A stretch of DNA of 64,000 bases from Tubulanus polymorphus (Eukaryota; Animalia; Nemertea), in assembly GCF_964204645.1 (NCBI RefSeq), contig NC_134026.1, forward strand, positions 17,084,150 to 17,148,149, given 5' to 3'. Position 1 is the stretch's first letter. Each line of letters begins with the position of its first letter. This document shows, in pieces, positions 13,465-63,204 of the stretch. The notes under the pieces were generated by a model. That model saw only the letters and a program-made list of their open reading frames with translations, did not search any database and was not told the DNA's origin. Both the position numbers and the translations under genes were made by a program.

Positions 13465-13562
13465 CTTAAATTCCGTATCCTGTCGCTAACTTTCGCGTCG
13501 TGAAATGTAAAATCCTGATATTGCGTTGTGAGTTGTGCGTTAATCTGATGTTATTCCTAACA

Positions 13563-13581
13563 AATCCTGGTCACGGCACCA
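13563..13581 (-). promoter_or_regulatory. Primer binding site (tRNA-His)
   Basis: TGGTGCCGTGACCAGGATT directly after the 5' LTR, complementary to the 3' end of invertebrate tRNA-His. Confidence 0.85.
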
Positions 13582-13821: not shown

Positions 13822-14180
13822 CATAGCTGCTTCCTGGTAAGCTGCAAAATACTGAATGAAATTACTGACAACGGAGACTGATGTACTAAGATCCGAAATT
13901 CGTGCCGAGTTACGCGAAGATAGCTGTGATAGTTTCATAAGATTGGTCCATTTGGCGGACAGACCGGTGGTTTCAAAAAGGGGATAGGGTACTGAATCCA
14001 TGGTAATGAATATGTATGGCTCCAATACGAGCCCGCATTATCAATCTGGCTCTGAAACGAGAAAAGGATGCCGTAATTCTTTCTTAATATAACCCTTTCA
14101 TTCCCGGTTGCACCATCCACTCGAGTGAGTAAAAAAAGAAAAAGGTGAATAAAGAACGCTATGACTACCGCGTTGATCAT
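13822..14180 (-). pseudogene. env: N-terminal part of gypsy-type env (signal peptide)
   Basis: MINAVVIAFFIHLFLFLLTRVDG signal peptide; RKNYGILF...YWSHTY motif; candidate splice acceptor TTTCAG at 14207-14202. Confidence 0.7.
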
Positions 14181-27582: not shown

Positions 27583-27645
27583 TTTTGGAAGACTCTAAAC
27601 GAGATGCTGCAACTGCTGGGTTAGCCCATCGACATCTGCAAAAAA

Positions 27646-38731: not shown

Positions 38732-39447
38732 ATGCAAGATAAATTAAAAGAATATAGATTATTTCTTGATTCTAGAAGACTTACAAATTATAAATCACAA
38801 AATTTGATAATACAACCAGATAGAGAATTTAAAAATTGTGTAGATTTATGATTAGTAAATACTAGTTTATGTAATTCTTTTTATAATATACCGGATAACT
38901 CTTGAACATTTAATTTTTTCAATCTTTGTTAGGAATAAGGATAAATGGCATCGTCTATTTTTGAAACCAGGATTATATAATTCTGAAACATTAGTGGAAG
39001 AAATTAATAGAAAAGCTCGGGTCAGATTAGGTTGTGATGGTGGATTTAACATTAGAATTTTAAAAAGTGATAGTTCCAATAAAATAAGGATTAGGTTAGC
39101 TCATGATGAAAGACATCATTTTTAGTTAAAAAACCTATAGCTAAACTGTTAGGAATTACACCAGATAAACTTTATTCAAATGTTGATACTAACCCAAACT
39201 TGAATAATTGATATTTTTTTTATAATAATAAATATGAATATAATTGTAGGACCGAGTATATGTTTTGAAGAGTATATGTTTTATATGTATATGTTTTTAC
39301 TTTCTTTGAGATTTCATGAATCAGATGAAGATTTTATTAATGATGATCTCAAAAACATTATAACTGAAATATATGATAATCATAAAAGTAGTGTTGAAAT
39401 AAATTATAACAAAGATAACTATATATTTTGAAGATAGTAATTTTTGA
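38732..39447 (+). pseudogene. Third, deleted copy of penton-like gene plus the following GPSICF gene
   Basis: MQDKLKEYRLFLDSRRL start and MNIIVGPSICF, homologous to 40135 and 40908. Confidence 0.8.
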
Positions 39448-40134
39448 CGCCTTATAAATCGTTACCATTATGACACCTAAAAAATGTTAACCATTCAGCC
39501 TCATTTTACAAACGACAACCGTAAATCGATGTGCAAAACGTTACAGGTCTATGTGTACACATACCAGCTATTTGGCAAAATATTATTGACAAAGATGTAG
39601 AATGGCTTCCTGTGATTATATAATAACCTCTATTTGAACGTCGAAATGTTATATTGCATTGAATATCATTAGAAGACGTAATGTAATAGTGTAATGGTTG
39701 TATTATTATATCAGAAACGGCAGGTATAAATAGAAATGATAAGTAAATCGGATTATTCGGTAAAATGGCGGATGTTTACAAGATGCGGAAGTCTGATATG
39801 AAAGTCAGACCCTGAAATGGGGATGCTGGTGGAATGACGAAGCTATCTACGATCCTCCGGTTCCTATTTTCGAGATTGGTAGAATTTACATTGGGCGCCT
39901 TAAATATAATGTGATTTCTGCCAATCATTGAAGGAGATCTCGTGAGACGGGGTCGCAGGGAATGTGAGTATAAATGACGGGGGATAAGCATCCCGTGGCG
40001 CCTTTCAATAATGGGATGCTTATCCCCTGAAAACTCTGTAGGTCGAGGATAGGGTAATTTTGCTAAAACTTATGAGAATATTTGGAAAAATGTTCATAAA
40101 ATTAATTTACCTAGTAATTTTTTTTGTTTAATAA

Positions 40135-40905
40135 ATGCAAGATAAATTAAAAGAATACAGAATATTTGTTGATTCTAGAAAACTTACAAATTATAAATCT
40201 CATAATTTACTAGTACAACTAGATAGAGAATTTAAGAATTGTGTTGATTTAAAATTAGTCAATGTAATTTTATGTTATTCTTTTCATAATATATCGAATA
40301 AAAGTCTTGATCATTTAGCTTTTAAAATTCATGTTAGAAATTTGAATAGATGGTTTCATCTTTATCTAAAACCAGGATTATATAATTTAGAATCATTAGC
40401 GCAAGAAATTGATAAAAGAGCTCGTTTAAAAATGGGTGCATCTAGTAAGTTTGAAATTAAATTTATTAAAAGTGATAGTTCGAGTAAAATAAGAATAAAA
40501 GTAGTTAATGAACGACATAGATTTCTAGTAAGAAAACCTTTAGCTAAACTGTTTGGAATTCTTCCAGATAAAGATTATTCAAATATTAATACTTATGCAA
40601 ATATAATACCTTACACACATTTCTATATTTATTGTAATTTAATTGATCCTACAAAAACATTTGAAGCAACTAAAGATACAATTTGTAATTCTAGTATATT
40701 AAATATTTTACCATTGAAAAATGTTAAACAATTTGGAACTCAAATAAATTATAATTTAGCTGAATGTGATTTTAAACCTTGTGTTTCACGATTTAATAAT
40801 TTCAAATTAGAAGTAAGAAATCATAATGGTAACTTAATTGATTTAAATAATTTTCCTGTAATTTATGAATTAGTTATAAGATGTAAAGAGTATTTTTATA
40901 TATAA
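40135..40905 (+). CDS. Putative minor capsid protein (penton), copy A, open ORF
   Basis: YIYCNLI...ILNILPL...FKP...LEVRNHNGNLIDLN..PVIYELVI C-terminal pattern typical of Polinton minor capsids. Confidence 0.65.
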   Translation: MQDKLKEYRIFVDSRKLTNYKSHNLLVQLDREFKNCVDLKLVNVILCYSFHNISNKSLDHLAFKIHVRNLNRWFHLYLKPGLYNLESLAQEIDKRARLKMGASSKFEIKFIKSDSSSKIRIKVVNERHRFLVRKPLAKLFGILPDKDYSNINTYANIIPYTHFYIYCNLIDPTKTFEATKDTICNSSILNILPLKNVKQFGTQINYNLAECDFKPCVSRFNNFKLEVRNHNGNLIDLNNFPVIYELVIRCKEYFYI

Positions 40906-40907
40906 AT

Positions 40908-41246
40908 ATGGATATATCAGTAGGACCGAGTATATGTTTTAGATTTGATTTCAAAAGTGAGAAAGAAATGAAATTTGGTATTAATGATGTCATAACTCAT
41001 ATCAAAAATATTGCATTTTTTAATGAAACAACATTTGATTATGAAACAACAATAAATAAAGAAACTTATATTGTAGAAAAGATTACTGATTTAATTAGAA
41101 ATTCTTTAAGATTTTATGAAGTAGACGAAGATTTTATTATCGATGATATTAAAAAAATAATAACTGAAATATATGAAAATGAAACGGATAATATTATAAA
41201 TGTTGATATCATAAATGCTATTACTAAGATAACTAAATATTTTTAA
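40908..41246 (+). CDS. Polinton hypothetical protein (GPSICF), copy A
   Basis: 112-aa ORF conserved with 54122-54478. Confidence 0.7.
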   Translation: MDISVGPSICFRFDFKSEKEMKFGINDVITHIKNIAFFNETTFDYETTINKETYIVEKITDLIRNSLRFYEVDEDFIIDDIKKIITEIYENETDNIINVDIINAITKITKYF

Positions 41247-41270
41247 GGTGGTTATTTTTTTTCTAAATAA

Positions 41271-44200
41271 ATGGCGGATCAGAAGTGGATAATAACTGGT
41301 TTATAGAATGGAACATTACTATCAGTTGGAACTGTTGGTTATATATACAATGTTATTGAAGAAAGTATTTTAAATGGGAAATATTTATGTTGATAGATTT
41401 GATATCAATGGTATTTTAAAATCAACATTAGCAGTTATTTTATCTAATTTAACAATTGATTATTAAGAAAAACAAAAATATATTCCTCCTATTGACGGGT
41501 AATTTATAGCTAACTATAATTATAAATATTATAGGATCGGCAATTGTTAACCCTTTAGCTTTTACTGGTGGTGGTTATTTATTTAAGCATATTGATAAAA
41601 ATGGTTCATTATCAGAACAAAAAAGGCATAACTTAGCATTAGAGAAATATAATAAAGCTGCAGAAGAGTATAGAGAAAAGAGACAAAATTATATGGATTA
41701 TATTGATAAAGAATTGTATAATCAAAATATTTCACATAGAGATTTTAAATCAGTCGATGATGCAATGAGGGTATATAACGCAGGAACAAATCGTGAAAAA
41801 TTACATCTATATAAACCTAAATTATCAGATTATTATACACCAAGTAAAGAACAACAATATGAAGTAATTTGGATTTTAGGTGGAACGGAACAGTTATTGT
41901 TATATTTGTTGCTTATAAATTTACTAATTAGTAATTTTTTTATGATATGAATGGAAGATAAAATTGATGGTGTTAATATTATTCCTCGTGATATAAATAA
42001 AACTAAATTAAAAATATATTTAGAAAAACAAATATTAGAATTTGAAAGTGACTTAAAGATAAAAAAAGAAAAAATATTTAAAAAGTAAAATTAAAAGTTA
42101 TTTTATTATTAGTGGTTCAGTAACAATTAGTTCTGTAATAACATTTCTTGAAATATTCAGTCCATTAACACCTTAAGCTATATCGATTGGCGTTTTAGGT
42201 TTAAGTTCAAGTGTTTTAACCGGAATTAGTTCAAAATTAAATATAAAAAGTAATAAAGAAAAAATAAAATATAATAAAAAAGAAATTAATAAATCAAAAA
42301 ATATATTAGATTATATTATTAGTTTAAATGGTAATATAACAATTGCAAAACAAGATAAACTATTAAAAGAATCAATTAATTATTAATTCTTTTGTTGTAT
42401 AAATGGTAGATAGTTTTCAAAAAGCTTTCCAATATAATAAATCAATTGAATATAATATTCCTGCACTAGATTTTAATAAAAATATAACATATAGAAATGA
42501 AGTTTTAAATTCATTACTTAATTTAGATATTTATGTTTCTGAAACTAATGATTTTAATGTTAAAATGGAAAATATATTTATATGTATACTTAATTAATTT
42601 AAAAAAATTGAAATTGATCATCAAAATCTGAAATATTGGCAGAACCAATTAAACTTTGCAGTTTATTGCGCAACAACAGGTTGTGAAATTAGTTGGAATG
42701 ATCATTTAAATAATTCAAAATATAAATTAATTCAAAGTTTTTTTAGATTTCATACTTATTTTCATATACGATTAATATTAAACGAATTAGAACTTGCTTT
42801 ACCAGGATCTACATATTTTAAAGAATTAGATAATAATATTAATTTATCAAAGTTTTATAAAGTTTGTAATGAACTTAATATAAACATAAATAATTCTGAT
42901 TTTCGAACAAAAATTGGAACGATAAGATCACTTCCTTGTCCTGAAAATATTTTATAATATTGCAAACTTCCCATACCATCTAACAGTTTTTATAATATCT
43001 ATAATAATAAATTAGGTTATGGTAAAGTAGGAAATATGGATTTAAAAACATTAAATTTCAATAAATTACCGAAATTCTATGATAATTTAAAACAAGAAAA
43101 CAATAATGGTTGGGTTTATTTTATTTTAGAAAAATAGTGAAGGATTTACAAAATCAGGTATACAAAGAATAAATCAATCACAGGTTGAAACAAGATCCCC
43201 AATAATTGGAAATTTAAATACATCATTTGATACACAAAAACAATTCAAAGTATTATTTGAAGATTCTATTCATAATGATAAAAATAGATCGATTCCAGAA
43301 AATATAGTAAGACATCAATATTATTTAGATAAATCTCATGTAAGATTAAATTATTGTATAGGTCCTAATTTATTAATTATTTCTGATGATTTAATATTAA
43401 AAATGGGAAATATAATTGGTTATAATAATTTGATTAAAAACTGCACCAATAAATAATTCATTTGGATTAAATGATATAGATAAAAAAATTATCACTGCTC
43501 CAAAATTAATGGAAGGTGAAAAAATAAAAAAATATATACAATCAACAGAAACTAAAACAAAGAATATTAAATTAAATAATGTTTCTAAAATAAAAGATTA
43601 CAATACATCAGAAAATATAAAAACTGATAATATTCAACATGAAATAATTAAAATTAATAATGATAATAAATCACATGAAAATACTGAATTAGCTATTACT
43701 TGTATAGGCATTATAATAGGAGGAATATTATGTTTTAAACTTTAATTTTTTTATCACATAAATGGAAGTAGAAGGTGGAGAAGAAATTGGAATGGATACC
43801 TTTGATGAACCCGGTATAACTGAAAAACCACAACCTGATTTTAATGAAACAAGTTTTAGTAACTATAATGAAACAGCATTCTAATTTAGCAAGACCTGAT
43901 ACTAATGAATATGTTAATAAAGCACGTTCAAGATTGAATATTGATAATGAAAATCCATATTTAGTAAAAAGAATTAGGATATGATGAATTAACTGAAAAA
44001 TTTAAACCAATATTAAAAAATCTGGATTCAATATAACTAATAAAGGTATGAATTATTTAGTAAAAGATTTGAAATATTTAAATGGTGATTATTATTAGCA
44101 TTTGAAAGATGACTATTATTTTAAGATATCTTCTAATAAGTCTTGATAAAATATAATCAAAACCAACTTTAATTAAATTAGAACAATCTAGAATTAAGAA

Positions 44201-45188
44201 AATCAATAATGATGTTAAAACTGATGTTACAGAAGAAATAATTAATAATAAAAGAATATTTAATCGATGAAATAATAATGATTTTTTGAAGATAATTAAT
44301 GAAAATTTAGAACAAGAAACAATTCCTAAAGAAAGTATTAATTCCAAAACTAGTAAACTTAAATCAACCGAAGTTCAAACTGAAAAACTTTTACCTGAAG
44401 GATTATTGGACGCAACAGGTCAAGCAATAGAAGCTTTAAGTAAATATTTTTCTGAAAAAGTAATTAGAGAAAGTGAAGGTGTAAGAAATGAAGCTGATAA
44501 AATTTCTGAGATGAAATTAGAAAGAGATCAAAAAATTAATACTTTAGAAGATAAATTATCTAGAGCAAATGAAGAATTAGAACAATTAAAGTCTGATTTA
44601 AATCATCAAGTAATTGATGAAATGGAATATAAGCAAACAAAATTAAGTTTAGAAAAAGAAATTGATAATTTAAAATATAAAATAGAAGTACAGAAAGGTG
44701 AAAGAGATATATTATTAAAAGAATTTGGTAATAATTTTAAAAGATTAAAAAATATTTTGAAAAGATGTTTAATAAAACCAAATTCTAAAGTATCATTTAA
44801 GGGTAGAATAAAATTATTATTTAAATTAGAAGGTATAACAATTCTCTCAATTCTAACAGCTGTAACAATGATATATACAACAATTGGTTTAGCTATATCA
44901 AATTCATTAAGATCTACACCTACCCCTAATAAGCCAGATAACCCCCCGTAATAATTCTATACAGGATAAAGTTAAAGATGGTTTAAAAAAATTAGCAAAA
45001 TATTCATGGGAACTATCTAAAAAATCTGCTGCACCATTACCCGGAATTATTGCATCAATTGTTAGTTTTGTTTTAAAATCTGCTGGAAACATTATTAGTT
45101 TTGCTGCTGAACATATTATTTTATTTTTAATTACAGTTGTAAGTGCAATTATTTTTGGATGAGTAAACATGATGAAAAATAAATAAGT
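41271..45188 (+). pseudogene. Copy A of five Polinton membrane/structural genes, disrupted
   Basis: Colinear homology with 54479-58412; many stops and frameshifts. Confidence 0.8.
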
Positions 45189-45205
45189 CATTTATTTCTT
45201 AATAA

Positions 45206-46400
45206 ATGAGTGGGAGTTATATAAATCCTTCTAAAAATTCTAGAATATCTAACGCAATTAAATCAGAAAGATCTCATCATATAATTACTCATAATCCATC
45301 TAATATTAATCCTGATGAAACTTTATATGTAAGAATTCCTCGATTAACACAAAATACTTGGTTGTTCCAAATAGTATTTATTTATCAGCTGATATGAAAG
45401 TAACTGGTCATGATAATAATTACGTTGTCGATAATGTTGGAAGATATTTAATTAAAACATTAATTGTAAAGATTGGACCAGAAACCGTTTTTCAATAAGA
45501 TGATTATAATTTATCTACGCATTATAAAGATTTATGGTTAACAAAAGAAAATAGAAATAATATGATATTTCAAGGTATTCAATCAGAAAATCAAAATATT
45601 TTTAGATCAGAAGCTAATAATGCAGTAGTAAATAATGCCAAAATTTGTAAATTTTCCATTACACTTTGAATTAATAAAAAATAATGCGCCTTTATATAAA
45701 TATGCAATACAAGAAGATATTATATTCGAAATAACATTTGCTCCTGTTAATGAAATTGTATTTTCTAGCGTTATTAAAGATATGGATTATAAATTATCAA
45801 ATATATGTTTAGAATATGACAAAATAACTGATGAAAATATTGCGAGCACAATTCAAACTCAATACAATCAAGGATTTTCATTATTATATGATTATGTTGA
45901 TAAATTTAAAACTGTAACTATTAATGCAAATGATGAAATAATAAATGAGAATATCAACTTCCCAAGAAGATTTAATCAAGGTATATTAATACTTTTTACC
46001 ATTGCAACATATTCTGATGGTGCAATAAAGGTTGATAATTATTATAATCCTGAAATAACAAAAGTAGAAATAACAATTGAAGGTATAGCAAATAAAATAT
46101 TTTGTCAAGGAATGAGAATGATAGATTTTATGAATGGAAAAAATAAAATCATCTGAAGATTGTAATATTAATCAAATTGATTATTATACTGGTAATAAAT
46201 ATGCATTATGGTTAGATTTTAGAACGACAGAGGATAACTTATTACATGGTTCTGGGAAGAAATTACAAAATACAAAAGATGGAATACAATGATTCGTGAA
46301 AAAGAAAAAAGGAGGTTTAAATTATAAGATGCATATTTATATTATATCTGACGCGCAATTAAATATTATAAATTCTTAATTAGATAGTATTCAATATTAA
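45206..46400 (+). pseudogene. Major capsid protein (double jelly-roll), copy A
   Basis: ITHNPSNINPDETLYVRIPRL; LWLDFRT..D..LHGSG; paralog of 58433-59684. Confidence 0.75.
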
Positions 46401-46430
46401 GAATATAAATATAAAATTAACGATGTATAA

Positions 46431-46626
46431 ATGGGGGATAAAAAAACTCCTAATACTAAAGAACAATATTTAAGAAATTTATATTATAACCCTGAGAGTT
46501 CGGTTGCTTATTCTTCTGCAAAAAATATATGGCGCCAAGTAAAACAAGATAAATTAGATAAGACAATCCCACAAAATTTAGTTAAATATAAAGATATAAA
46601 TGATTTTATGTAAGAACAACCAACAT
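46431..46626 (+). pseudogene. Truncated integrase N-terminus, copy A
   Basis: LRNLYYNPESSVAYSS, matches 59715-59910 then ends abruptly. Confidence 0.85.
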
Positions 46627-46908
46627 CATCACAGCTAGGCTCTAGTGAGAACGGACGATTGCTCTATGATACACATATACAGTGAGTGCGCGTAACAACA
46701 ACTGCGCGTGGATATATCGATACAGTGAGTCGCTACTGAGAACGGTTATTAACGCGTGTGCTATTACTGTAGTACAATGATTGCGTGTCAACTGTGCCCG
46801 GATAAATAGATGCTGTGAGGCTTGGGTGAGAACGGTTAATAGCGTGCTTGTTATATACAAGGGGAAGTAATCCCCACTCATCACCACAAGTATTTTTTTT
46901 CCTTATAA

Positions 46909-49900
46909 ATGGGGGAGAATGAACACCAGACAGAAAACAATAATGTTAATAAAAATCAATATTATTGTTCATATTGTAAAAAATACATCGATAAATCTAA
47001 CAAATCTAAACATGAAAAATCTGCAAATCATAGAAAAAATGTTATAGATTTTGAAACTCCAGAAAATTCCAATGAAAGAAAAGAACGATTAGATGATATG
47101 AATGTGGATGAAGTGTGTGAAGTTTGTAATGAATTTATAGTAAAAATGAATTATAAAAGACATCTCGAATCACAAAAACACCATCAAAATTTGAGTTATA
47201 ATGTTTTAGGAAAAGATAAACCTCAACAAGTAAAAAAACCAACTTCAAAAACTAAATCCATTTCAAATAAACCTTACATGGAAAATGTTAGAAATTATAT
47301 TGATTCACTATAAATAAAAGATACAATTGAAATATTAGAAACATTACGTAGTAAAATTGGTCCTGCAGCTATTATATTTAGATTTTTTAAAGGTACAACA
47401 ATAGAAGATTATAGTAAATTTAATGAAATAATAGAAAAAATACTAGATTTGATAACAGATGTTGAATATCCAAAAATTAGTATCTCTGGGAAAGTAAGTT
47501 TTTTAAAGTCAGAAGAGAAAATGGATTATAATATTCAAACACTCTCTGAAGAAATAATTTCAAAAACGCAAATAAAAGAGAAATTAGAAAAAATATTTAA
47601 TGAATTTAAACGTCATATTGAAGAAAGATATTTTGAGGGTTCTGGTTTAACATTGAATGGAATTATATTTTTAGATTTAAATGTTTATAATACAAAAAGG
47701 AATAAAACATCAAAAAGTAAAACAATGTTTAAAAATGATTCAAGCTTTACAACAGAAAAGGATATTAAAGCATCATCTTATATTAAATTACCATTTACAA
47801 CAAAAGCAGTAATAAATGTTCAAAATGAAGATAATAAATGTTTTCTATGGTCAATTATTAGTTGCTTACACCCAACAGAAGATATTACGCATAGTTTAAG
47901 AATAACAAATTACCGGAAATATGAAACATTATATAAAATTGATCAATATCCAGTAACTATAAAAATGATACCCAAAATAGAAAAAATTAATAATTTAAAA
48001 ATAAATGTATTCGAATTGATGCAGTTACCAAAGACAAAAGGTGAAAATATTAAAGATTATACATTGGAAGCTTTATATTTAACAGAATATTATGATGATG
48101 AAAAAGCTATAGATTTGTTATATTACAAAAAAGATGAAAATGAACATTATATGTGGTTAAAACAAATTGATTTATTCTTTAGAACAGAAAGTGATTTTAA
48201 CAGTCATAAAATTTATCTATGTAGAAAATGTTTATCTAAATTTAGAACTGAGAATGCGTTACTAAATCATAAAGAATAATGTGATAATAAAGATTTTTGT
48301 AAATTAATAATGCCAACAGAAAAAGATTATAAATTGAAATTTACTAATCATAAATTTAAGAATATTGTTCCATTTGTAATTTATGGGGATTTTGAATCGT
48401 TGAATAAAGAATTAACTGATCAAGATAGAAAAGAAATATATAACAAAAAGCAATTATTAAAATCAATGGATAAAGGAAATGAACTAAATGAAGACACAAC
48501 ACAAGACCCGCCAATTATAAATACAATTAAAAAAGTTCACCAAAGAGCTGCTGCTTATGGAATTTATATAAAATCAAATTATCCTGAATTATATGAAAGT
48601 CAATATATTTATTTTAGAGGTGAAGATGTAGTTAATAATTTTTGTAACAAAATAATTGAATTAGAAAGTGATTTTGCAAAATTATTAAACAAAAATAAAA
48701 GAATAGTTATGACAAAAGAAGATTGATTTTAATTATGCAACTCATTGTTGTTATTGTGAAAAACGTTTTTATTCATTTGATAAAAAAGTTAGAGATCATG
48801 ATCATTTAAATTCAAAATATCGTGGAGCTACTCATGAAGATTGCAATTTACAAGCTAAGAAAATTAATTTCGTACCAATATTATTTCATAATTTATCAGG
48901 CTATGATACCCATCTATTTATAAAACAATTATCGGGAAAATTGGGCGCAATTAATCAAGAAATAGAAGAATATAATGCTATGAATGGCGTAAATGTAAGA
49001 AAATATGATTTTAAACTATTAGCTAAGACATCTGAAAATTATATTTCATTTCAATTTGGTTGCATTAGATTTTTAGATTCTTATAGATTTCTAGTAGCAA
49101 GTTCATTAGATAATTTAGCAAAAAGTTTAGTTGATAATGATTTTGTTATAACTCGATATTATTATCCAAATGAACAAGATTTTAAATTATTGAGATATAA
49201 AGGTGCAATTCCTTATTCATTTTATAAAACACACAATGATTTTAATGTAACAGAATTATTAAAAGATCAATTTTATGATCAATTAAAAGAGGAGTATGTG
49301 AAAGATGAAGTGTTTAATAGAACATTAAATATTTGGAACCATTTTAAGATGAAAAATCATGGTGAATTAGTTGATTTATATTTAAAATCAGATGTTATGA
49401 TACTGGCTGACATATTTGAAAAATTTAGAGAAGTTAATTTGAATCATTTTAATGTTGATCCTTGTTATTGCTACTCTAGTCCTGGTTTAACCTGGCAATG
49501 TGGTTTAAAATATACTAACGTAGAGTTAGATTTATTAAAAGTACCAGACATGGTTTTATCATTTGAAAAATCAATTAGAGGTGGAATTAGTGGTGTTATG
49601 GGAGATAGATATTTTAAAGCAAATGATGAATATAAATTATTATATATTGACGCCAATAATTTATATGGTTGGGCAATGATGCAACCTCAACCATATAAAA
49701 TTTTATATTAACAGAAGTTGAAAATGGTGATAAAACTGATTGGGAAAGCGCAATTGCGAGTTTAAAAGATGAAGCACCAATTAGTTATTTCTTTGTAGTT
49801 GATTTAGAATATCCTGAAAATATAAAGTTTAAAACAAGAAACTTACCTTATTGCCCAGAACATTTAACTGTAGATGATAGTTATTTAAGTGAATACCAGA

Positions 49901-52025
49901 AGAAAATAAAACCGAAAGATCATGTTTTTACAGAAAAATTAATACTTACTCAAAATAATAAATACAATTATATTGTTCATTATAGAATGTTAAAATTTCA
50001 TCTAAAACAAGGAATGAAATTAAAGAAAGAACATAGATATATTGAATTTAATCAATCGAAGTGGTTAGAAAAATATATAGATTTCAATACTCAACAGAGA
50101 ACAATATCTGAAACAGATTTTGAAAAAGATTTTTTTAAATTAATGAACAATAGTTTTTATGGTAAAAACATGTGAAAATATTAGAAATAGAAATGATATT
50201 GAATTAGTAAATAATTCTGAAAGATTGAGACATTTACAATCAAGTCCTAGACATTTAGGAAATAAAAAATTTGAAGATTATTTAACTGCAGTGAAATTAA
50301 AAAGAACGTCAATGAAATTTAATAAACCTATATTCATTGGTTCAACTGTTTTAGAAGTATCAAAATTATTAATGTATGATTTTAATTATAATGTTTTACA
50401 ACCACTTTTTGGGGAAAAGCATATTGAAATATTATATTTTGATTCTGTAACAGCTGACACCCCAATATTATTAAAATGTAATGATAAAATATTGATAAGA
50501 AGAATTTCAGAAATAATTCCAAAACAAAATGAATGTTATATTTCATATGGTGAAAAAGAATTAATACAAATAAATTGTTTAATGGATGTTTGGACAAGAA
50601 ATGGATGGAAAAAATTAAAGAATATTATTAGGCATAAAAGAAATAAGAAAATCTATAGAGTTAGAACTAAATTAGGGTTTGTAGATGTTACAGAAGATCA
50701 TAGTTTAATTAAACGAAATGGTGATGAAATAAAACCAACTGATATAAAAATTGGGGATGAATTATTACATAAGAGATTTTTCCAAAGAATGAATCATATG
50801 TCATTCGACGAAATTATTGATAATATTTATAATATAGAACCTGAAACATTAGAAGAAAAAGAATATTTTATCCAAGGATTTTTTTTATGGGAGATGGTTC
50901 AGCAGGTGTGTATAATTATGTTAGTGGTAATAAATATTGTTGGTATTTATGCAATCAAGACTTGAAATTATTAGAAAGAATTAAGAAATTCTGTGAAGAA
51001 GTTTATTCGCACAAAGTTTTTAAAATCATAGATGTTATGAAATCATCGCAATGTTATAGAATACATGTGAATAATCCTAAAGATTTTGCTATAAAATATA
51101 ATGACGAATTCTATATTCATGCAATAGTGAAAAGTAATACTTCAACTAAAGAAAAGATAGTACCAGATTATGTATTAACTGCAAAAGATAATTTAAGAAA
51201 ATGGTTCTTCATTGGATTTTATGCTGCAGATGGTTCAAAAAGTTTCAAAACAATATCTTTAGCTCAAAAAGGAAAAGTTGCTATATCAGGGTTAAATATA
51301 TTATGTAATTCATTAGGCTTCAATATGAATATTGGATTATTAAATCTAAACCAAATTGTTTTAATTTAAGCCACACAGAAAAAGATTTAACTGAAGAAGT
51401 TAAAGATTTATTTGAAATATATAACCCATCAGATTATGTCTATGATTTATCAACTGAAGATGGCACATTCAACTGTGGATTTCCATTAATTTGATTCAAT
51501 ACTGACGCCTACATACTAAAAATCAAGACAAATGACATAACAAAAGACTTAAAAACATTAAAACATCATTTTGATTTTAGGAATTATCCCAAAGATCATG
51601 AACTATTTAGCAATGATAATAAAAAGATTCCTGGTAAATTTAAAGATGAATTAGGGGATGATGAAATTATTGAATTTGTTGGGATAAGAAGTAAAATGTA
51701 TAGTTACAGAACAAAAGATCGTGAAGCTAAAAAGTTAAAAGGAATAACAAAACATGTGGTTGATAAACATGTAGAATTCCAAGATTATATAAAGTGTTTA
51801 TATAACTCAATTGTAATGAAACATAAAATGAATTGTTTAAGATCAGAAGATCACGAGATGTACATTAATGAAGTTGAAAAAACTAGTTTGAATCCATTTG
51901 ATGATAAAAGGCATATTTTAGATGATGGTATAAAACATTACCTTATGGTTATTAAAATGGATCAATATCATCAAACTCGAAATCACTATTGGTTTCTTCT
52001 TTTTCATTTAATTGTTCTTGTATAA
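46909..52025 (+). pseudogene. polB: Protein-primed family B DNA polymerase with N-terminal Zn fingers, endonuclease VII-like domain and an intein; disrupted
   Basis: Exo I YGDFES, Exo II FHNLSGYD, Exo III YLKSDV, Pol A IDANNLYGWAM, Pol B KLMNNSFYGK, Pol C YFD|TDA, KMYSY; several stops and frameshifts. Confidence 0.95.
50444..51500 (+). mobile_element. Intein with LAGLIDADG homing endonuclease in PolB motif C (degenerate)
   Basis: Block A SVTADTPI, block B VDVTEDHSL, endonuclease blocks GFF-MGDGS and FFIGFYAADGS, block F DYVYDLSTEDGTF, terminal Asn then Thr+1. Confidence 0.92.
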
Positions 52026-52026
52026 T

Positions 52027-53278
52027 TTATTTAGGTTCTTCCATTTCATTTTTCTCATTTAAATAAAGTTCTATCTTGTACCACATTTCATCTCGCTGTC
52101 TTTGTTTCTTTTTGTTCGTTAATTCATCAAATGGAATTATAATATCGATGTTTAAATAATTTACTATCTTATTTAAAAAGAATTCATAATTAATTGAATC
52201 TGTTATTCTATTATCCACATAATATCTTAATATTTGTTTGAATGTTTCTTTTATATTTTCCATATCTTTTTCTGTTAATTTAGGTTTTTTATAATAATCG
52301 TTAAATAATAAATATAAATACATTTCCTTTTCTTGTGTGTTGAATGTTGATGGAATAATTGTTTTTATTATATCTTTTTTAGTTATTTCACCATTTTTAT
52401 TTTCTATTATTTTCATTTTTTCAAGCCATTGCTTATATTCTGGTGTATGATCTTCCATAGAAAATATCTTAAATATTTCATCTAGATAATTTGATTTTGG
52501 TTCTATAAGAATATTTCTAGTTTTTTCATCACCCCATAAATTCTTTTGCCATCCACATTCATTACAAAATATCACCGGACCTTCTTGTCTTAAGTACTCA
52601 TAAATACATTTTGGGCATTTTTGTCTATCATTTCTTAGTAATAGATCTTCGTTAAGCTCTTGGTATTTTCTTACGTTTTCTTTATGTTTTATTGTTCTAT
52701 TATGTAGATTTGAATTACTTGTTGTAATAATCAATTTACAATATTTACAATAATATGTTTTTCTTGTTAATTCATTATATTGTTTTTCTAACTTTTCAAC
52801 TGTTTCTTTATTATCTGGTAACGTTTTCTCATATTTTATTTTTTCTAATAAACTATTTTTTCTTTCATTGAATTCAGTTTTAAATTTATTAGAAATTTTA
52901 TCTATATGTACTTTACGAAATTGATGATTCTCCCAATCTTCTATATTTTCAGGACTAAATTTCATTCGACAAGGCTCGCAGAAATGATCTTTTACATTAT
53001 CCTTATCATAGAATAAGAAAGGTCTTTTCCAAATAACTTCAGGTTCAACTTCAACAGAATTACTATTACTTTCGTTACTATCAACATTAACCGTTGCGTC
53101 ATTAATTTTACACTTCTCTGAATGTTTTTTAACATAATTTCTTGAGAATAATTTATTACATTTTGGGCAGTTTATTTTAGGGGGGTTTATAATTTTCATC
53201 ATGTTTTTTCATATGTCGAGCCATATTACTTTTTCTTAGAAGTTCACCAGAAATTTCGCATGGTATCTTCTCATCCAT
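52027..53278 (-). CDS. Zn-finger protein with C-terminal VLTF3 (poxvirus late transcription factor)-like domain
   Basis: 391-aa ORF 52027-53202 (probable true start 53278, frameshifted); several C2H2 fingers; CPKC..CNECG ribbon; INYEFFLNKIV...KKQRQRDEMWYKI. Confidence 0.6.
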
Positions 53279-53345
53279 TTATTTAGGAGAAATTTTATTA
53301 AAATTAATTTTTAGTGATGGGCGGTAATTTTTTATGTTATAAATA

Positions 53346-54105
53346 ATGGTAGAATTAAAAGAATACAGAATATTTGTTGATTCTAGAAAACTTACAAATT
53401 ATAAATCACATTATTTATTAGTACAATTAGATAGAGAATTTAAGAATTGTGTTGATTTAAAATTAGTAAATATAAGTTTATGAAATTCTTTTTATAATGT
53501 ATCGGATAAAAGTCTAGAACATTTAATTTTTTTCAATCTTTTACAAAAAAAGGAATAAATGGTTTTTTATATATTTAAAACCAGGATTATATAATTTAGA
53601 TACATTAGCACAAGAAATTAATAGAAAAGCTCGAGCTAAATTAGGAAGTGATTCCGGATTTAGTATTAGATTTTCAAAAAGTAATAGTTCTAATAAAATA
53701 AAGATTAGGTTAGCTCATGACGAACAATTTAAATCTACAGTAAGAAAACCTTTAGGTAAACTGTAGGAATTAACCCAGATATTGTTACAGTAAACGCAGA
53801 AGGTAGATCAAACGTTAATACCTTACACACATTTCTATATTTATTGTAATTTAATTGATCCTAAAAAAACATTTGAAGCAACTAAAGATACAACATGTAA
53901 TTCTAGTATATCAAATATTTTACCATTAAAAAATGTTAAACAATTTGGAACTCAAATAAATTATAATTTAGCTGAATATGAATTTCAACCTTGTATTCCT
54001 CAATTTAATAATTTTAAATTAGAAATAAGAAATCATAATGGATATTTAATTGATTTGAATAACTTTCCTGTAATTTATGAATTAGTTATAAGATGTAAAG
54101 AGTAA
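53346..54105 (+). pseudogene. Putative minor capsid protein (penton), copy B
   Basis: Homologous to 40135-40905, with stops and frameshifts. Confidence 0.7.
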
Positions 54106-54121
54106 TTTTTTTGATATATAA

Positions 54122-54478
54122 ATGAATATAACTGTTGGGCCGAGTATATGTTTTGGGTTTGATTTTAAACGTGAGAAAGAAATGAAATTTAACATTAATG
54201 ATGTAATAACACATATCAAAAATATTGCATTTTCTAATGAAACAACATTTGAGTATGAAACAACAATAGATAAAGAAACTTTAAATGTAGAAAAGATTAC
54301 TAATTTAATTAGAGAATCTTTAAGATTTTATGAATTAGATGAAGATTTTATCATCGATGATATTAAAAAAATAATAATTGAAATATATACAAATGAAACT
54401 AGTAATGAAATAAATGTTGAATTAATCATAAATAAGTTAACTAAATATTTTGAAGATAGTAATTTTTTTGATAAATAA
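54122..54478 (+). CDS. Polinton hypothetical protein (GPSICF), copy B
   Basis: 118-aa ORF, TAAATG start. Confidence 0.7.
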   Translation: MNITVGPSICFGFDFKREKEMKFNINDVITHIKNIAFSNETTFEYETTIDKETLNVEKITNLIRESLRFYELDEDFIIDDIKKIIIEIYTNETSNEINVELIINKLTKYFEDSNFFDK

Positions 54479-55148
54479 ATGAGTGATAATAAGTGGATAA
54501 TAAACTGGATTATATAATGGAGCATTACTATCAGTTGGAACTGTTGGTTATTCAATGGTATTAAAAAAAGTATTTAAAATGGGAAGTGTTAATGTTGATA
54601 GATTTGATATAAATGATATTTTAAAATTAACATTAGCAGTTACTTTATCTAATTTAACTATTGATTATTTGGAAAAACAAAAATATATTCCTCCCATATA
54701 AATGCGTAATTATTTTACTAAATAAATGGCTTCTGCCGTTATAACTATTATATGATCGGCAATTGTTAACGCTTTAGCATTTACTGGTGGTGTTTATTTA
54801 TTTAAGCATATTGATAAAAATGGATCATTAACAGAACAAAAAAGGCATAACTTTGCATTAGAGAAATACAATAAAGCTGCAGAAGAATATAGAGAAAAGA
54901 GGCAAAACTATATGGATTATATTAACAAGGAATTATATGATCAGAAGATTTCACATAGAGATTTTCAATCAGTTGATGATACAATGAGTTTATATGACGC
55001 GGTTACCAATAAAGAAAAATTACATCTATACAAACCTAAATTATCAGAGTATTATACCCCAAGTAAAGAACAACAGAAATATGAAATAATATGGATTTTA
55101 GGCGGGACAGTTATTGTTATATTTGTAGCGTATAGATTTACTAATTAG
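54479..55148 (+). pseudogene. Two small Polinton hydrophobic proteins (starts 54479, 54726)
   Basis: NGALLSVGTVGYSMVLKKVF; AIVNALAFTGG..LF...EQKRHN.ALEKY; duplicated in copy A. Confidence 0.65.
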
Positions 55149-55167
55149 TAATTTTTTTGCTAAATAA

Positions 55168-55602
55168 ATGGATGATAAAGTTGATAATATTGATATTATT
55201 CCTCATGATGTAAATAAAACTAAATTAAGAATATATTTAGAAAAACAAATATTAGAATTTGAAAATGATTTAAAAGTTAAAAAGAAAAAATATTTAAAAA
55301 GTAAAATTATATATTATTTGATTATAAGTGGTTCGGTTACAATTAGTTCTGTAATAACATTTCTAGCAATATTCAGCCCATTAACACCTTTAGCTATATC
55401 AATTGGTGTATTAGGATTAAGTTCAAGTGTATTAACCGGTATAAGTTCAAAATTCAATATAAAAAGTAATAAAGAAAAAATTAAAACTAATATAAAAGAA
55501 ATTAATAAATTAAAAAATACACTAGATTATATAATGAGTTTAAATGGTCATATAACAGTTGGAGAACAAGATAAATTATTAAAAGAATTAATAAATTATT
55601 AA
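55168..55602 (+). CDS. Polinton coiled-coil/transmembrane protein
   Basis: 144 aa with a central long hydrophobic hairpin; duplicated at 41952. Confidence 0.7.
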   Translation: MDDKVDNIDIIPHDVNKTKLRIYLEKQILEFENDLKVKKKKYLKSKIIYYLIISGSVTISSVITFLAIFSPLTPLAISIGVLGLSSSVLTGISSKFNIKSNKEKIKTNIKEINKLKNTLDYIMSLNGHITVGEQDKLLKELINY

Positions 55603-55618
55603 TTTTTTAATTATATAA

Positions 55619-56944
55619 ATGGTAGATAGTTTTCCAAAAGCTTTCCAATATAATAAATCAATTAAATATAATATTCCTGCAATAGATTTTAATAAAGATA
55701 TTTCATATAGAAATGAAGTTTTAAATTCATTAATTGATTTATATATTTATGTTACTGAAACTAATTATTTTAATGTTAAGATGGAAAATATATTTCATGT
55801 GTATACAATTAATTTTAAAAATTTAAATGAGGCAAAACAATGGTTATTAAAATCTAATATGAAGTATTGACAGAACCAATTAAATTTTGCTGTTTATTGT
55901 GCAACAACAGGATGTGGAATTAGTTGGAATGATCATTTAAACAAACCAAGTTTACCATTGATGTTATCACTCTTTAGATTTCATACATACTTTCAAACAA
56001 AATTAATATTAGATGAATTAGAATGTCCTTTACCAGGTTCAAAATATTTTAAAGAATTGAATAATAATATTAATTTTTCTAAGTTTTATAAAATATGTAA
56101 TGAATTTAATATTAATTCAAATAAAGATTTTAGAGCATAAATTGGAACGATAGGTGGATTAGGAATATTATATACTAAAGAATTTGGAAAAATAATGGCA
56201 AATTCAGATATAAGAACACTAAATTGGAATGAATTACCAAAATATTATAATAATATACAACAACAAAACAATAATGGTTGGGTTAATTTCATTTTAGAAA
56301 ATAGTGAAGGTTTTACTAAAGCTGGAATACAAAGAATAAATCAATCTATTAGAACTTATTTGATATGTATTTTAGGCGCTCAAGTTGAAACAAGATCCCC
56401 AATAGTTGGAAATGATAACACTTCATTTGATGCGCAGAAACAATTCAAAGTATTATTTGAAGATTCCATTCATAATGATAAAAATAGATCGATTCCAGAA
56501 AACATTGTAAGATATCAAAATTATTTAGATAAATCTCATGTAAGACTAAATTATTGTATAGGCCCTAATCCATTAATTATTTCTAATGATTTAGTACTAA
56601 AGATGGGAAACATAATTGGTTACAATAATCTAATTAAAACTGCAACAATAAATAATTCATTTGGATTAAATGATATAAATAAAAAGATTATTACTGCTCC
56701 AACATTAATGGAAGGTGAAAAAAATAAAAAACATATTCAATCAACAGAAACTAAAACTAAGAATATTAAATTAAATAATGATTCTAAAATAAAAGATTAC
56801 AATACATCAGAAAATATAGAAACTGATAATATTCAACATGATATAATTAAAACTGATAATGATAATAAATCCCATGAAAATGCTAAATTAGCTTTAACTT
56901 GTATAGGAATTGTAATCGGAGGAATATTATATTTTAAATTTTAA
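55619..56944 (+). pseudogene. Polinton conserved protein with C-terminal TM anchor
   Basis: QNQLNFAVYCATTGCG, FRFHTYFQ, RINQSIRTY..CILGAQ; ends LALTCIGIVIGGILYFKF; internal stops. Confidence 0.75.
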
Positions 56945-56960
56945 TTTGTTTATTATGTAA

Positions 56961-58412
56961 ATGGAAGAAGGTGGAGGAGATATTTCAATGGAAGGCATTG
57001 GAAATAATAATGAAGGATATATTGATGATGATTGTAATGATGAAGAAACTAATATTGATAATGATGATGAATCAGCATATAATTCTAATTTAGCAGATAG
57101 TGGTTCTAAAGCCCCATCAACAGTTGAATTTGATAGAAGCAATAAATCGAGAATAAATACTGAAAATTTAAATCCAGATTTATTAAAAAGAGAATTAGAA
57201 TATGAAAATTTAACTGATAAATTCAAACCAATATTAGAAAAATCTGGATTCAGTATAACAAATAAAGGTGTGAATTATTTAGTAAAAGATTTGAAATATT
57301 TAAATGGTGATTATTATTGGCATTTGAAAGATGACCATTATTTTAAGATTTCTTCTAATAAAAGTCTCGATTAAATAATAACAAAATCAACTTTTATTAA
57401 ATTAGAACAATCTAGAATTAAGAAAATCAATAATGATGTTATAACTGATGTTACAAAAGAAGAGATAACTCTAAATAGAAAAGAATTTATTCGAAGAAAT
57501 GATGATTTTTTGAAGATAAATAATGAAAATTTAGAACCAGAAACAATTCCTAAAGAAGTTCATAATTCCAAAACTAGTAAATTTAAATCAACCGAAGTTC
57601 AAACTGAAAAACTTTTACAAAATGGGTTACTTGATGCAACAGATCAAGAATTAGAAGATTTAAATATATTTTCTGATGAAGCAATTAGAGAAATTATTAG
57701 TATAAGAAATGAAGCTGATAAAATCGCGAATGATAAAAGTATAAGAGATTTTAAAATTAGAACTTTAAGGAGGAATTAATTGATAAAAATAAAGAAATAG
57801 AACAATTAAAGTCTGATTTAGATCATCAAGTAATTGATGAAATAGAATATAGGCAAACAGAATTACGTTTAGAAAAAGAAAAAGATGATTTAGAATATAA
57901 CATAGAATTACAGTAAGAAGAAATTAAATTATTATTAAAATCATATGATTATAATATTAATAGATTAAAAGTTATTTTTAAAGATTTGTTGATAAAAACC
58001 AAATTCTGAAATATCATTAAAAGATAGAATAAAAGTATTATTTAAATTAGAAGGAATAACAATTCTTTCAATTCTAACAGCTGTAACTATGTTATTTACA
58101 ACAATTGGTTTAGCTATATCAAATTCACTGAAATCTACTCCTACTCCCAATAAACCGGATAAACCCCCAAATGATAATAATTCTATACAAGATTAAGTTA
58201 AAGATGGTTTAAAGAAATTAGCAAAATATTTATGGGAACTATCTAAAAAATCTGCTGCAGCTTTACCAGGAATTATTGCATCAATTGTTGGTTTTATATT
58301 AAAATCTGCACGAAACATTATTAACTTTGCTGCTGAACATAATATTTTATTTTTAATTACAGTTGTAAGTGCTATTATTTTTGGGTTAGTGAATATGATA
58401 AAAAATAAATAA
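56961..58412 (+). pseudogene. Polinton acidic/coiled-coil membrane protein
   Basis: Acidic N-terminus, coiled coil, EGITILSILTAV..., AAALPGIIASIV hydrophobic C-terminus; duplicated at 43762. Confidence 0.7.
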
Positions 58413-58432
58413 TTAATTTTTTTGTTAAATTA

Positions 58433-59684
58433 ATGAGTGGGCGTTATATCAATCCTTCTAAGAATCATAGAATATCTAATGCTATTAAAGCAGAAAGATC
58501 ACATCATATAATTACTCATAACCCTTCTAATATTAATCCCGATGAAACTTTATATGTTAGAATCCCTAGGTTAACACAAAATACTTTTTATGTTCCAAAT
58601 AGTATTTATTTATCAGCCGATATAAAAGTAACTGGTAATAATAATAATTATGTTGTTTATAATGTTGGAAGATATTTGATAAAAAAATTAACAATAAAGA
58701 TTAGTCCAGAAACAGTTTTCTCATTAGATGATTATAATTTATTTATGCATTTTAAAGATTTATGGTTAGCTAAAGAAAATAGAAATAATATGATATTTCA
58801 AGGAATCCAATCAGAAAACCAAAGTAAATTAAGATCAGACTCTGATAACGCAATAGTAACTAATGCTGTAGATAACTTAATAAAAAAGATTTATGGAAGC
58901 AAATATAAAATTCCATTAGACTTTGAATTGATAAATAATAATGCACCTTTATATAAATATGTAATTCACGAAGATATTATATTTGAGATAACATTTGCTC
59001 CTGTAAATGAAATTATATTATCTAGCGTTGTTAAAGATATGGGTTATAAATTATCGAATATATGTTTAGAATATGACAATATGAAGTAACTAATGAAAAT
59101 ATTGCTAACACAATTCAAACTCAATACAATCAAGGATTTTCATTATTATATGATTATATTGATAAATTTAAAACTGTAACTATTAATGCAAATAATGAAA
59201 TAATTAATGAGAATATTAACTTCCCAAGAAGATCTATTAAAGGTATATTAATATTTTTACCATTGCAACATATTCTAATGGCGCAATAAAGGTTGATAAT
59301 TATTATTATCCTGAAATAGCAAAAGTAGAAATAACTATCGAAGGAATAGCAAATAAAATATTTTGTCAAGGAATGAGAATGATTGATCAATGGCCAGAAA
59401 TTAGGAAACATTTTATGAATGAAAAAGTAAAATCATCTTGAAATTGTAATATTAATTAGATTAATTATTATGCCGGTAATAAATATTCATTATGGTTAGA
59501 TTTTAGAACAACAGAGGATAATTCACTACATGGTTCTGGGAAAAAACTACAGAACACTAAAGATGGAATACAATTATTCATGAAAAAGAAAAAAGGAAGC
59601 TTAAATTTCAAAATGCACATTTATATTATATCTGACGCACAATTAAATATTGTAAATTCACAATTAGATAGTATTCAATATTAG
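58433..59684 (+). pseudogene. Major capsid protein (double jelly-roll), copy B
   Basis: ~415 codons; THNPSNINPDETLYVRIP, Y.LSNICLEYD, LWLDFRT, LHGSG; frameshifted after 59080. Confidence 0.75.
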
Positions 59685-59714
59685 AAATATAAAGTTAAAA
59701 TTAACTATATATAA

Positions 59715-60844
59715 ATGGGCGGTAAAAAAAACTCCTAATATTAAAGAACAATATTTAAGAAATTTATATTACAACCCTGAGAGTTCGGTTGCTTATTCTT
59801 CTACCAAAAATTTATGGCGTCAAGTAAAACAAGATAAATTAGATAAGATAATCCCACAAAATTTAGTTAAATATAAAGATATAAATGAATTTATGTTAGA
59901 ACAACCAACATATACAACACATAAAAAAATTGTTAGAAAATATAAAACTCGTAAAACTATGGTAAGTTATGTAGATCAACAATGGCAAGGAGATTTAATT
60001 GATATGAAAAATGTTAAGAAAGATAATGATGATTATTGGTGGTTATTGAATATAATTGATATTTTTAGTCGTTATGTATGTAGCTTCCCACTTTATAGAA
60101 AAGATGCTGCACAAACATCAAATGTTTTAAGAAAATTTCTTTCGGATGATAAACTAAAACCAGAAAAAATACAATTTGATGATGGAAAAGAATTTGATAA
60201 TTCACTTGTTCATGAACTCTTAGATAATCATAATATTAAATATTTTTCAACAAAATCGGATAAAAAAGCAGCAGTTGTTGAACGATTTAATACAAACATT
60301 AAGAACAAGAATGTGGAAATATTTTACAGCAAATAATACTTTTAAATGGATTGATGTTTTACCAAAATTGATAGAAGGATATAATAATTCTTATCATTCT
60401 TCTATTGGAATGAAACCTATTGATGCTAGAAATCCTGAAAATGCTGAAATTGTTTGGAATAATTTATATGGGGCATTTCTTGTAGATGATTTTGGTGAAC
60501 CTAAATTTAAAGTTGGTCAAAATGTTAGAATTTCTAAGTATAAAAAGATGTTTGACAAAGTATACGATCGAAATTTTACTAGGGAAATATATAAAATAAA
60601 AAAGGTAATAACAACAAAACCATATGTCTATAAATTAGAAGATTTAAATGGTGAAGAAGTTGATGGGTATTTTTATGAAGAAGAATTGAGTTTAACTACT
60701 GAAAATCTAGAACAAGAATATAAAATTGAAAAAGTATTAAAAACAAAAACTGTTAAAAGATAAAAATATTCTTTAGTAAGATGGGTTGGATGGCCAGATA
60801 AATTCAATGAATGGATATTATCAAGTAAAATTAAAAATATATAA
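59715..60844 (+). pseudogene. Retroviral-like (rve) integrase with C-terminal chromodomain
   Basis: QWQGDLIDM, IDIFSRY, QFDDGKEF, VVERFN; LVRWVGWPDKFNEWI; frameshifts. Confidence 0.93.
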
Positions 60845-61448
60845 ATGAATAATAAGGAATTATTTATATTTGAGCCTCATAATATGTCAATTTCTGGCGT
60901 AACAAATTGTGGAAAAACTTATTTTATATTAACATTATTAGAAACTATTTATAAAAACTATTTTGATAATATAGTATTATTTTGTCCAACACATGAATTT
61001 AATCAAACTTATGATAATATTACTAGAAATAATAAATTTATTATATTAGATCCTAAAACAGTAAAAGAAAATTTAGATAATTGTATTAAAATAGCAATTG
61101 ATATTTATAAAGGATCCAATACATTATTCATCATAGATGATTGTGCTAATCTACATGATTCAAAAGTTAGAGAAAGTGAGTTATGCTATTTAGCTTTCTC
61201 TGGGAGACATTTTGGGATAACAACATGGGTTTTAAATCAAAAATATAATTCAATTGTTGAAGACTTTAGGGATAACATAAGATTTTTAGTATTATTCTAC
61301 AATAAAGATATCGATGAAAAAGGCACTTGAAGAAAATGATATAATTCCACATAATTTACGTAATGAATATATTGATAAATTGAAAAAAAATAAAAGATCA
61401 AAATTACTATTTGGATTACAACACCCATTTAAATATGAATTTATTTAA
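60845..61448 (+). pseudogene. A32/FtsK-like DNA packaging ATPase
   Basis: Walker A GVTNCGKT, Walker B LFIIDD, SGRH motif; frameshift near 61315. Confidence 0.9.
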
Positions 61449-62789: not shown

Positions 62790-63117
62790 TATTTTTTTTA
62801 AATTAATCAACAATTTCTAAATCATGATGGCCATCTTCATTTTTTCCATGATAGATTATTTTAAATCCTTCTAAATCTTTTAATTCCTCTGTACTCAATG
62901 AAACCCATTTATCCATACATTCTCGCGACGTACTAACATTGCAGTAGCTTAAATTAGCTCATACTTTCTCTCCATATTTAGTTTTTATCTTTTCTAATTT
63001 CAATATTTTATGTTCAATTTCTTTTGTAACATCAACTAACTTTTTTATTTCAAATTGTTTTTTTGCTGGTTTTATTCTGTTATTTATTGTTGCTAAGAAT
63101 GCTTTTCTATCTCCCAT
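62790..63117 (-). pseudogene. Small terminal Polinton gene (inverted homolog at 36586-~36915)
   Basis: MGDRKAFL.. versus MGDRKTFL..; both follow the motif CCACTCATCACCAC. Confidence 0.55.
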
Positions 63118-63204
63118 TTATAAGGAAAATAAATTACTTGTGGTGATGAGTGGTGTCTCGTACTCTCGTACTCTGGTATGAAAACGCCATTTCCTAATTA
63201 CTTA

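Follow-up and report, generated by a model that had tools for sequence, protein, structure and literature searches.

A Broken pol-c Intein in the Protein-Primed DNA Polymerase of a Polinton, Very Likely Resident in an Animal Genome

A broken intein, composed of a Hint splicing domain and a LAGLIDADG endonuclease, interrupts motif C of the protein-primed family-B DNA polymerase (pPolB) of a Polinton in the 64,000-nucleotide stretch of Tubulanus polymorphus DNA analysed here (hereafter, the window). Taking the sequence comparisons together, we assign a probability of roughly 80% to the reading that this intein belongs to a Polinton-specific clade, which likely entered once from a giant-virus-type polymerase and has likely spread by homing, probably including homing among chromosomal copies. 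What is new is a pol-c intein in another class of polymerase, the protein-primed one, and, very likely, in animal chromosomes. Searches of the open PMC and bioRxiv literature turned up no description of an intein of the Hint/LAGLIDADG type from either a Polinton polymerase or an animal nuclear genome.

The insert and its host element

Three-frame translation of positions 47500-53500 reveals that the polymerase reads EILYFD up to 50443 and resumes with TDAYIL, with 1057 bases in between (Table 1). The insert opens with SVTADTPI directly after EILYFD and ends in Asn (51498-51500), the +1 residue being the Thr of TDAYIL, so that Ser1, TxxH, the block F Asp, the terminal Asn and the +1 Thr, the residue set of a class-1 intein, are all present. 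The penultimate residue in this copy is Phe, not His. A penultimate His is common in class-1 inteins, not obligatory. The two endonuclease motifs read GFF..MGDGS, which is cut through by a frame break in a poly-T run near 50880, and FFIGFYAADGS; a second frame break lies near 51340. The N-terminal piece scores 33.6 bits against the TIGR01445 intein_Nterm model (curated cutoff 24.5, E 5.7e-08), and the Pfam matches of the broken pieces, Intein_splicing (E 0.0034) and LAGLIDADG_3 (E 0.006), stay below their cutoffs; LAGLIDADG_3 (PF14528) is above cutoff in seven of seven relatives. The insert is 64% identical over 330 columns to the intact intein of another pPolB, and the nearest polymerases are colinear with the window gene apart from exactly the 50444-51500 stretch, which together place the match beyond chance. 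At the level of sequence, we regard this stretch as confirmed to be a Hint and double-LAGLIDADG intein at the YFD/TD site of a decayed pPolB (here and below, a slash marks the insertion point). A spliceosomal intron is ruled out because the insert codes for Hint and LAGLIDADG along its full length, a Hedgehog-type Hint domain by the embedded endonuclease, the terminal Asn before Thr and the existence of empty alleles, and an assembly artefact because reads from a different study cover the insert.

The host gene matches PF03175 (E 4.2e-13), begins within the 44-bp inverted repeat at 46874, and is itself decayed, with in-frame stops at 47311 and 48277 and frame breaks near 48725, 49696, 50163 and 51931. 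The element, ∼16 kb at 24% G+C set in DNA of 40% G+C, is by its gene content (pPolB, rve integrase, A32 ATPase, inverted ends) a Polinton/adintovirus. Its likely jelly-roll capsid genes have no Pfam or NCBIfam match in the element and are leads from Atlas features: the clusters that match the likely major capsid gene include PF21738 DJR-like (11% of members) and Capsid_N (15%), and the Atlas neighbours of the sister copy of the minor capsid gene, which we take to be penton-like from its motif pattern, are viral clusters. No target-site duplication was recognised in the flanks, which were read by eye and in which the exact element ends are uncertain. The element resembles the Polintons, Mavericks and adintoviruses of PMC8502044 in its pPolB, rve, A32 ATPase, capsid-like genes, inverted ends and length of about 16 kb. 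Unlike the elements described in that work, it carries an intein in its polymerase, and no adenain-type protease was matched among the 40 ORF pieces scanned.

Table 1. Features of the intein-bearing element, in window coordinates
Feature	Position	Strand	Basis or remark
Left terminal-inverted-repeat-like end	46874..46916	+	44 bp, 93% to 63110-63153
pPolB N-extein, broken (stops, frame breaks)	46909..50443	+	PF03175 and HNH/Endonuclease_7-like motif
Intein: Hint splicing domain and two-motif LAGLIDADG endonuclease	50444..51500	+	two frame breaks and one stop
Hint region, N-terminal: Ser1, block B TEDH 50690-50701	50444..50780	+	TIGR01445 above cutoff; PI-PkoII match E 4e-4
LAGLIDADG endonuclease region: motif 1 50876-50901, motif 2 51205-51237	50876..51340	+	translation; profile matches
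Hint region, C-terminal: block F YVYDL 51435-51449, stop 51492-51494, terminal Asn	51400..51500	+	translation
pPolB C-extein, starts Thr-Asp (Asp is the second Asp of motif C)	51501..51950	+	translation
393-aa ORF, U1-type zinc finger	52027..53208	-	profile match
Likely minor capsid (penton)-like gene, broken	53328..54105	+	84% sister copy intact at 40135-40902
Likely double-jelly-roll major capsid gene, broken	58433..59680	+	Atlas feature matches 0.96-0.98, recognition below threshold
Retroviral-type integrase (rve), broken	59668..60850	+	PF00665 E 4.8e-10
A32-type packaging ATPase, piece	60845..61330	+	PF04665 E 2.1e-12
Right terminal-inverted-repeat-like end	62807..63155	-	also 77% over 356 bp to 36549-36900

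These results bear out an initial annotation that had called the insert an intein in the protein-primed polymerase of a Polinton: the intein identity is supported by TIGR01445, the fold of relatives and the colinear empty polymerases, the host by PF03175, rve, A32 and the terminal inverted repeats, and the two frameshifts and the stop near the C-terminal end of the insert by the three-frame translation. That the insert decayed with its host gene stands in so far as stops and breaks occur in the exteins too; the decay is partly private to this copy, since most sibling reads differ from it at the first break.

The terminal motif CACCACTCATCACCAC occurs at 36549, 46872 and 63140-63155 of the window, three matches against zero expected. 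It recalls adenovirus-like CATCATC ends more than the usual AG ends of Polintons. A second, partial sister element lies upstream (36549-46626), with an inverted-repeat end and an 84% copy of the structural module (matching 53280-59911), and breaks off just inside the integrase region; the penton-like gene and the gene beside it recur a third time, incompletely, at 38717-39445 (77-82%). Some 240 bp of GC-richer, internally repeated DNA (46634-46871) are wedged at the left end of the element and are apparently missing from many other copies. With 134 reads running from 46633 straight into the terminal motif, the nested or composite arrangement with the upstream sister element may also be present in several copies.

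The insertion site is the pol-c site, as the initial annotation had also proposed: the insert enters motif C before TD, just as the mimivirus PolB intein sits at YGD/TDS (PMC549080). The window intein shares with the pol-c inteins of RNA-primed PolBs (mimivirus, archaeal; PMC549080) this point in motif C, a length of about 350 aa, the Ser1, TxxH, terminal Asn and +1 Thr residues and a LAGLIDADG domain. Unlike the known pol-c inteins, it has a protein-primed PolB as its host, that of a Polinton, and this element is integrated in many copies, likely in an animal genome; the pPolB inteins form a clade of their own, and their target codons are more varied (YFD, YGD, YMD, YLD, SSD, ASD). Nucleases inside Polinton polymerases have been described in a nematode study, which reports HNH and VSR insertions in pPolBs (PMC10748475), and endonuclease insertions in pPolBs have been suggested to "result from intein invasions" (PMC11161782). 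The HNH and VSR insertions likewise place an endonuclease domain inside a Polinton polymerase, but in the available parts of that study they lie outside motif C, whereas the window insert is a full splicing domain with empty alleles; intein, Hint and LAGLIDADG are not mentioned in the text or supplements of PMC10748475.

Occupied and empty alleles

Among ten sequencing runs under the same species label, four, all from one study that may be the assembly's source, contain 35-38% of the window's sequence words. Raw reads were drawn from another study under that label (run X5, 12% of the run read). Depth in X5 is ∼100-260-fold over the intein and mostly ∼270-420-fold over the exteins, and just 182 of 7958 reads are at least 99% identical to the window. 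So few near-identical reads at high depth show that the family is multi-copy and that the window contains a single, aged member of it. At the first break, 155 of 215 reads differ in length from the window copy, and at the second, 51 of 95. Depth is 200-300 within the element and 4-18 just outside, and 444 reads run into unlike sequence behind 63183; from the depth inside versus outside, our guess is a copy number in the tens. In forty raw reads, with 27 different starts, 50443 is followed by nine letters that differ from the window and encode T-D-S, and then by 51510. Such reads represent alleles without the intein, from this family or a sister one, and they depart from the window precisely at the intein's first base. 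Intein-bearing reads outnumber the empty ones at the likeness threshold used.

Intact relatives exist in public protein data. With the first intein piece as query, 130 proteins matched among 491 candidates, and the top matches of the 120 listed are the pPolBs P0002 (1693 aa, 67%) and P0010 (1603 aa), alongside numerous fragments from ENA contigs of 14-190 kb. The P0002 intein in turn retrieved, within the 120 of 1302 matches listed, at least five full intein-bearing pPolB clusters (P0002, P0010, P0141, P0151, P0152), all with open polymerase frames of 1500-1700 aa, the same insertion site and both nuclease motifs. Both LAGLIDADG motifs are kept in six of six intact relatives examined, as in the window pieces, and the penultimate residue of these six is His in four, Ser in one and Lys in one, Lys being common in the listed PolB inteins. 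The pPolB intein is uncommon, not unique: three carriers (P0002 itself, P0141 and the truncated P0282) occur among the 120 pPolBs nearest the P0002 N-extein. Empty-site relatives include P0246-P0254 and P0505. An Endonuclease_7-like domain is also present in this pPolB class. Searches for the DNA context of the intact pPolB relatives returned 0 loci in metagenome_contigs and 0 in viral_contigs; the 17 viral loci with related inteins hold PolB or topoisomerase inteins (34-56%), and the pPolB probe matches none of them. Some of the intact relatives may come from protists or from free viruses. We note that the same intein family occurs in type II topoisomerases at a DQD/TDG site that mimics the polymerase site (8 of 259 inteins extracted; P0029, P0033, P0041, P0063 and others; loci L012 and L013).

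P0014, a natural intact relative, has 2118 matches among all representatives, mostly long PolBs and short fragments at 56-89% among the 150 listed. Modelled with a 63-row alignment (pLDDT 92, pTM 0.91), it finds its best PDB matches in the TliVMA, PhoVMA, PI-PkoII and PI-PfuI inteins (E 4e-17 to 2e-14), also PI-SceI, with I-DmoI folds (rmsd about 3) ranking behind the inteins. Among named viral proteins, it matches best the DNA polymerases from a phycodnavirus, Pandoravirus, Megavirus and Marseillevirus.

A second family with both alleles is provided by the P0141 cluster (136 members, 15 listed, 12 full-length and aligned), where seven sequences carry the intein and five lack it. Far upstream of the site, intein-bearing (plus) and empty (minus) alleles share 98.4% identity, which drops to 92.5% over the 61 residues that precede the site and to 83.3% over the 60 that follow. 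Each of the nine fixed differences among 1116 columns falls at -7 to +44 of the insertion site, and 24 of 109 variable columns fall within 50 residues of it; out of 792 possible splits, fixed differences arise under the true 7/5 split alone. The flank of the plus alleles resembles another family (P0011). The coexistence of intein-bearing and empty alleles is shown as a pattern in the window species and in P0141. The flanks look as co-conversion would be expected to leave them after a cut allele is repaired from a donor, which amounts to at least one event and gives no rate; the same footprint would arise if one recombinant allele had later been multiplied by transposition.

The insert parts motif C (YxD/TD) one residue ahead of its second Asp. 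By established intein chemistry, and by the account of the mimivirus intein in PMC549080, Ser1, TxxH, the block F Asp, the terminal Asn and the +1 Thr make up the self-splicing residue set. Judged from these conserved residues, the insert, when intact, would excise itself in the manner of class-1 inteins and restore motif C; active polymerase would appear only after splicing, so the splicing domain would stay under selection. Polintons elsewhere in the same nucleus that still have an empty YxD-TD allele would be cut there by the LAGLIDADG domain, and repair from an intein-bearing copy would paste the intein, plus some flank, into the cut allele. Donors and targets could be Polintons scattered through the chromosomes of one nucleus or virus genomes that replicate together, and homing may occur in the latter, not in chromosomes. 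The window copy has decayed along with its element. Empty alleles often vary at the +1 and +3 codons (CDS, TDA) in intein-holding lineages (P0503-P0508, P0264 and the nearest pPolBs of P0002), possibly reflecting target-site escape.

Intein and polymerase phylogenies

Insertion at YGD/TDS is found in 206 of the 259 full-length inteins extracted. In a quick tree of 78 rows, all ten pPolB inteins form one group (SH-aLRT 100) inside a starred set that holds 28 YGD/TDS PolB inteins, the sister grouping of the pPolB clade to one PolB-intein subgroup being unstarred (90). A more careful tree of 40 rows recovers eight of eight pPolB inteins as one clade (100/100), with the window sister to P0002 (100/97). 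Both trees have a midpoint root only and contain no archaeal outgroup or archaeal pol-c inteins, and the related PolBs are labelled giant-virus-type from their Pfam content, the GVMAG names of their contigs and their neighbours in fold comparisons rather than from named genomes. Carriers are scattered on the polymerase tree: among 54 extein rows (P0010, too distant, and the fragments P0001, P0007 and P0008 omitted), the eight intein-bearing rows need seven changes, at least six of them forced by starred branches, with 159 of 500 shuffles as low. The nearest exteins to those of the window are empty (P0251, P0252, P0254); its N-extein is 69% identical to intein-free P0251/P0252 and its C-extein 73-78% to intein-free P0251/P0252/P0254.

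Identities of inteins and exteins can also be compared pair by pair. Between close relatives, inteins are less conserved than exteins (P0151/P0152, 77 vs 82%; P0141/P0011, 66 vs 69%), so pairs in which this is reversed point to lateral transfer. The window and P0002 share 64.5% in the intein and 57.1% in the exteins, the window and P0010 47.6% and 19.7%, and P0010 against all others 44-49% and 19-23%. P0010 probably belongs to the Alpha class and the other intein-bearing pPolBs to the Beta class of PMC8502044, an assignment made from PF03175 scores alone. As a pattern in these identities, the intein appears to have crossed between very distant pPolB classes.

The foremost alternative, which we nevertheless consider very unlikely, is a single old gain in an ancestral Polinton polymerase, followed by vertical descent with repeated precise loss and no ongoing homing. 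The single intein clade with its long stem and deep splits would fit such a history, as would the placement of the window and P0002 polymerases within one starred 11-row extein clade. It is contradicted by the P0010 pairs, and it sits poorly with the flank co-conversion in P0141, where alleles with and without the intein agree at 98% of positions far from the site, with the retention of both nuclease motifs in all six intact relatives and with the rarity of carriers among the pPolBs nearest P0002. Lateral spread by homing within a Polinton-specific clade is the reading that we prefer.

As to where that clade came from, motif C is the most conserved spot common to RNA-primed and protein-primed family-B polymerases. 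A rare intein jump between the two polymerase classes is for this reason plausible. The proposed kinship to giant-virus-type PolB inteins has held up, given the starred set shared with YGD/TDS PolB inteins and the viral polymerase fold matches, and we infer a transfer from giant virus to Polinton. The initial annotation had the intein jump into the pPolB, probably from a co-infecting large virus; the giant-virus-type kinship agrees with this, but the jump was probably not directly into this copy. A direct, recent jump into the window element, or several independent jumps, is a shade less probable still than vertical descent. Outside Polintons, the closest inteins, which are about 40% identical, do occupy this site in PolBs of the PF00136/PF03104 type, and animal PLVs share mobile genes with co-infecting entomopoxviruses (PMC11296320); however, the nearest intein sits in another Polinton (63-65%), and the pPolB inteins are all monophyletic. 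Because the nearest intein is that of the Polinton P0002 and the clade is one and deep, the jump was probably old and single, with later spread among Polintons. The G+C content is 0.25 in the intein and 0.25-0.26 in the exteins, so composition gives no sign of recent foreign origin.

Animal host and wider significance

The DNA that flanks the element contains a Pao retrotransposon and a rhodopsin-family GPCR ORF. Pao elements and rhodopsin-family GPCRs point to animals. The GPCR, a single ORF of 440 aa at 26272-27594 (-), is the main host-type gene in the window. The Pao element (6260-13822) has an open 1685-aa ORF and 241-bp direct repeats that are 99% identical (7505, 13582), and an ORF next to it matches Baculo_F (E 4.9e-06); with these features, it is possibly env-bearing and recent. 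We conclude that the intein-bearing Polinton very likely resides in an animal genome. Entry into an animal germline, which the initial annotation had also put forward, is favoured by the animal-type flanks, the same-label reads and the pseudogenised gene. A wrong join in the assembly, with the element stemming from a symbiont, a protist or a free virus instead, has as little probability as a direct jump: five of the ten same-label runs hold almost none of the window's sequence words and no single long read spans the element and the GPCR, yet a separate whole-genome run from 2026 with this label covers 30 of 30 bins of both stretches examined, at hundreds-fold depth with copies 5-10% divergent, the polymerase gene is pseudogenised, and Pao and the GPCR stand in the flanks.

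A survey of inteins reports them in fungi, protists, plastids and NCLDV, with Iridoviridae among the viral families, and proposes horizontal spread via dsDNA viruses (PMC5784728). Like those inteins, the one described here is mobile in kind and lies in a DNA polymerase of eukaryotic viruses; the viral families named in the available part of that survey are NCLDV only and its nuclear inteins those of fungi and protists, whereas the window intein is in a Polinton, likely in an animal. Inteins are not mentioned in PMC8502044 (text and supplement), PMC13215967 or PMC11131425, PMC10710043 makes no mention of polinton or animal, and the available portions of PMC12220804, PMC5718144, PMC3671162 and PMC13768754 treat inteins in general terms only.

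A broader interpretation of the sequence patterns, to which we give somewhat less than an even chance, is that animal germlines carry true homing inteins. The pol-c clade would then act as a gene-conversion drive among chromosomal Polintons, would have swept most copies of the window's family and would jump between polymerase classes, with empty motif-C codon variants as resistance alleles.

Our results bear on the statement, made in the available text of one review, that inteins are absent from metazoan genomes (PMC8529194). They add a complete intein in the protein-primed branch of polymerases, where the viral inteins covered by the accessible part of PMC5784728 are those of giant-virus families, and supply direct evidence behind the passing suggestion of intein invasion in Polinton polymerases (PMC11161782). 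The intein marks gene flow between giant viruses and Polintons, and is relevant to the question whether such viruses and animal Polintons come together within a single cell. Families whose occupied and empty alleles are 98% identical make it possible to measure homing, co-conversion and resistance of the target site in animal genomes.
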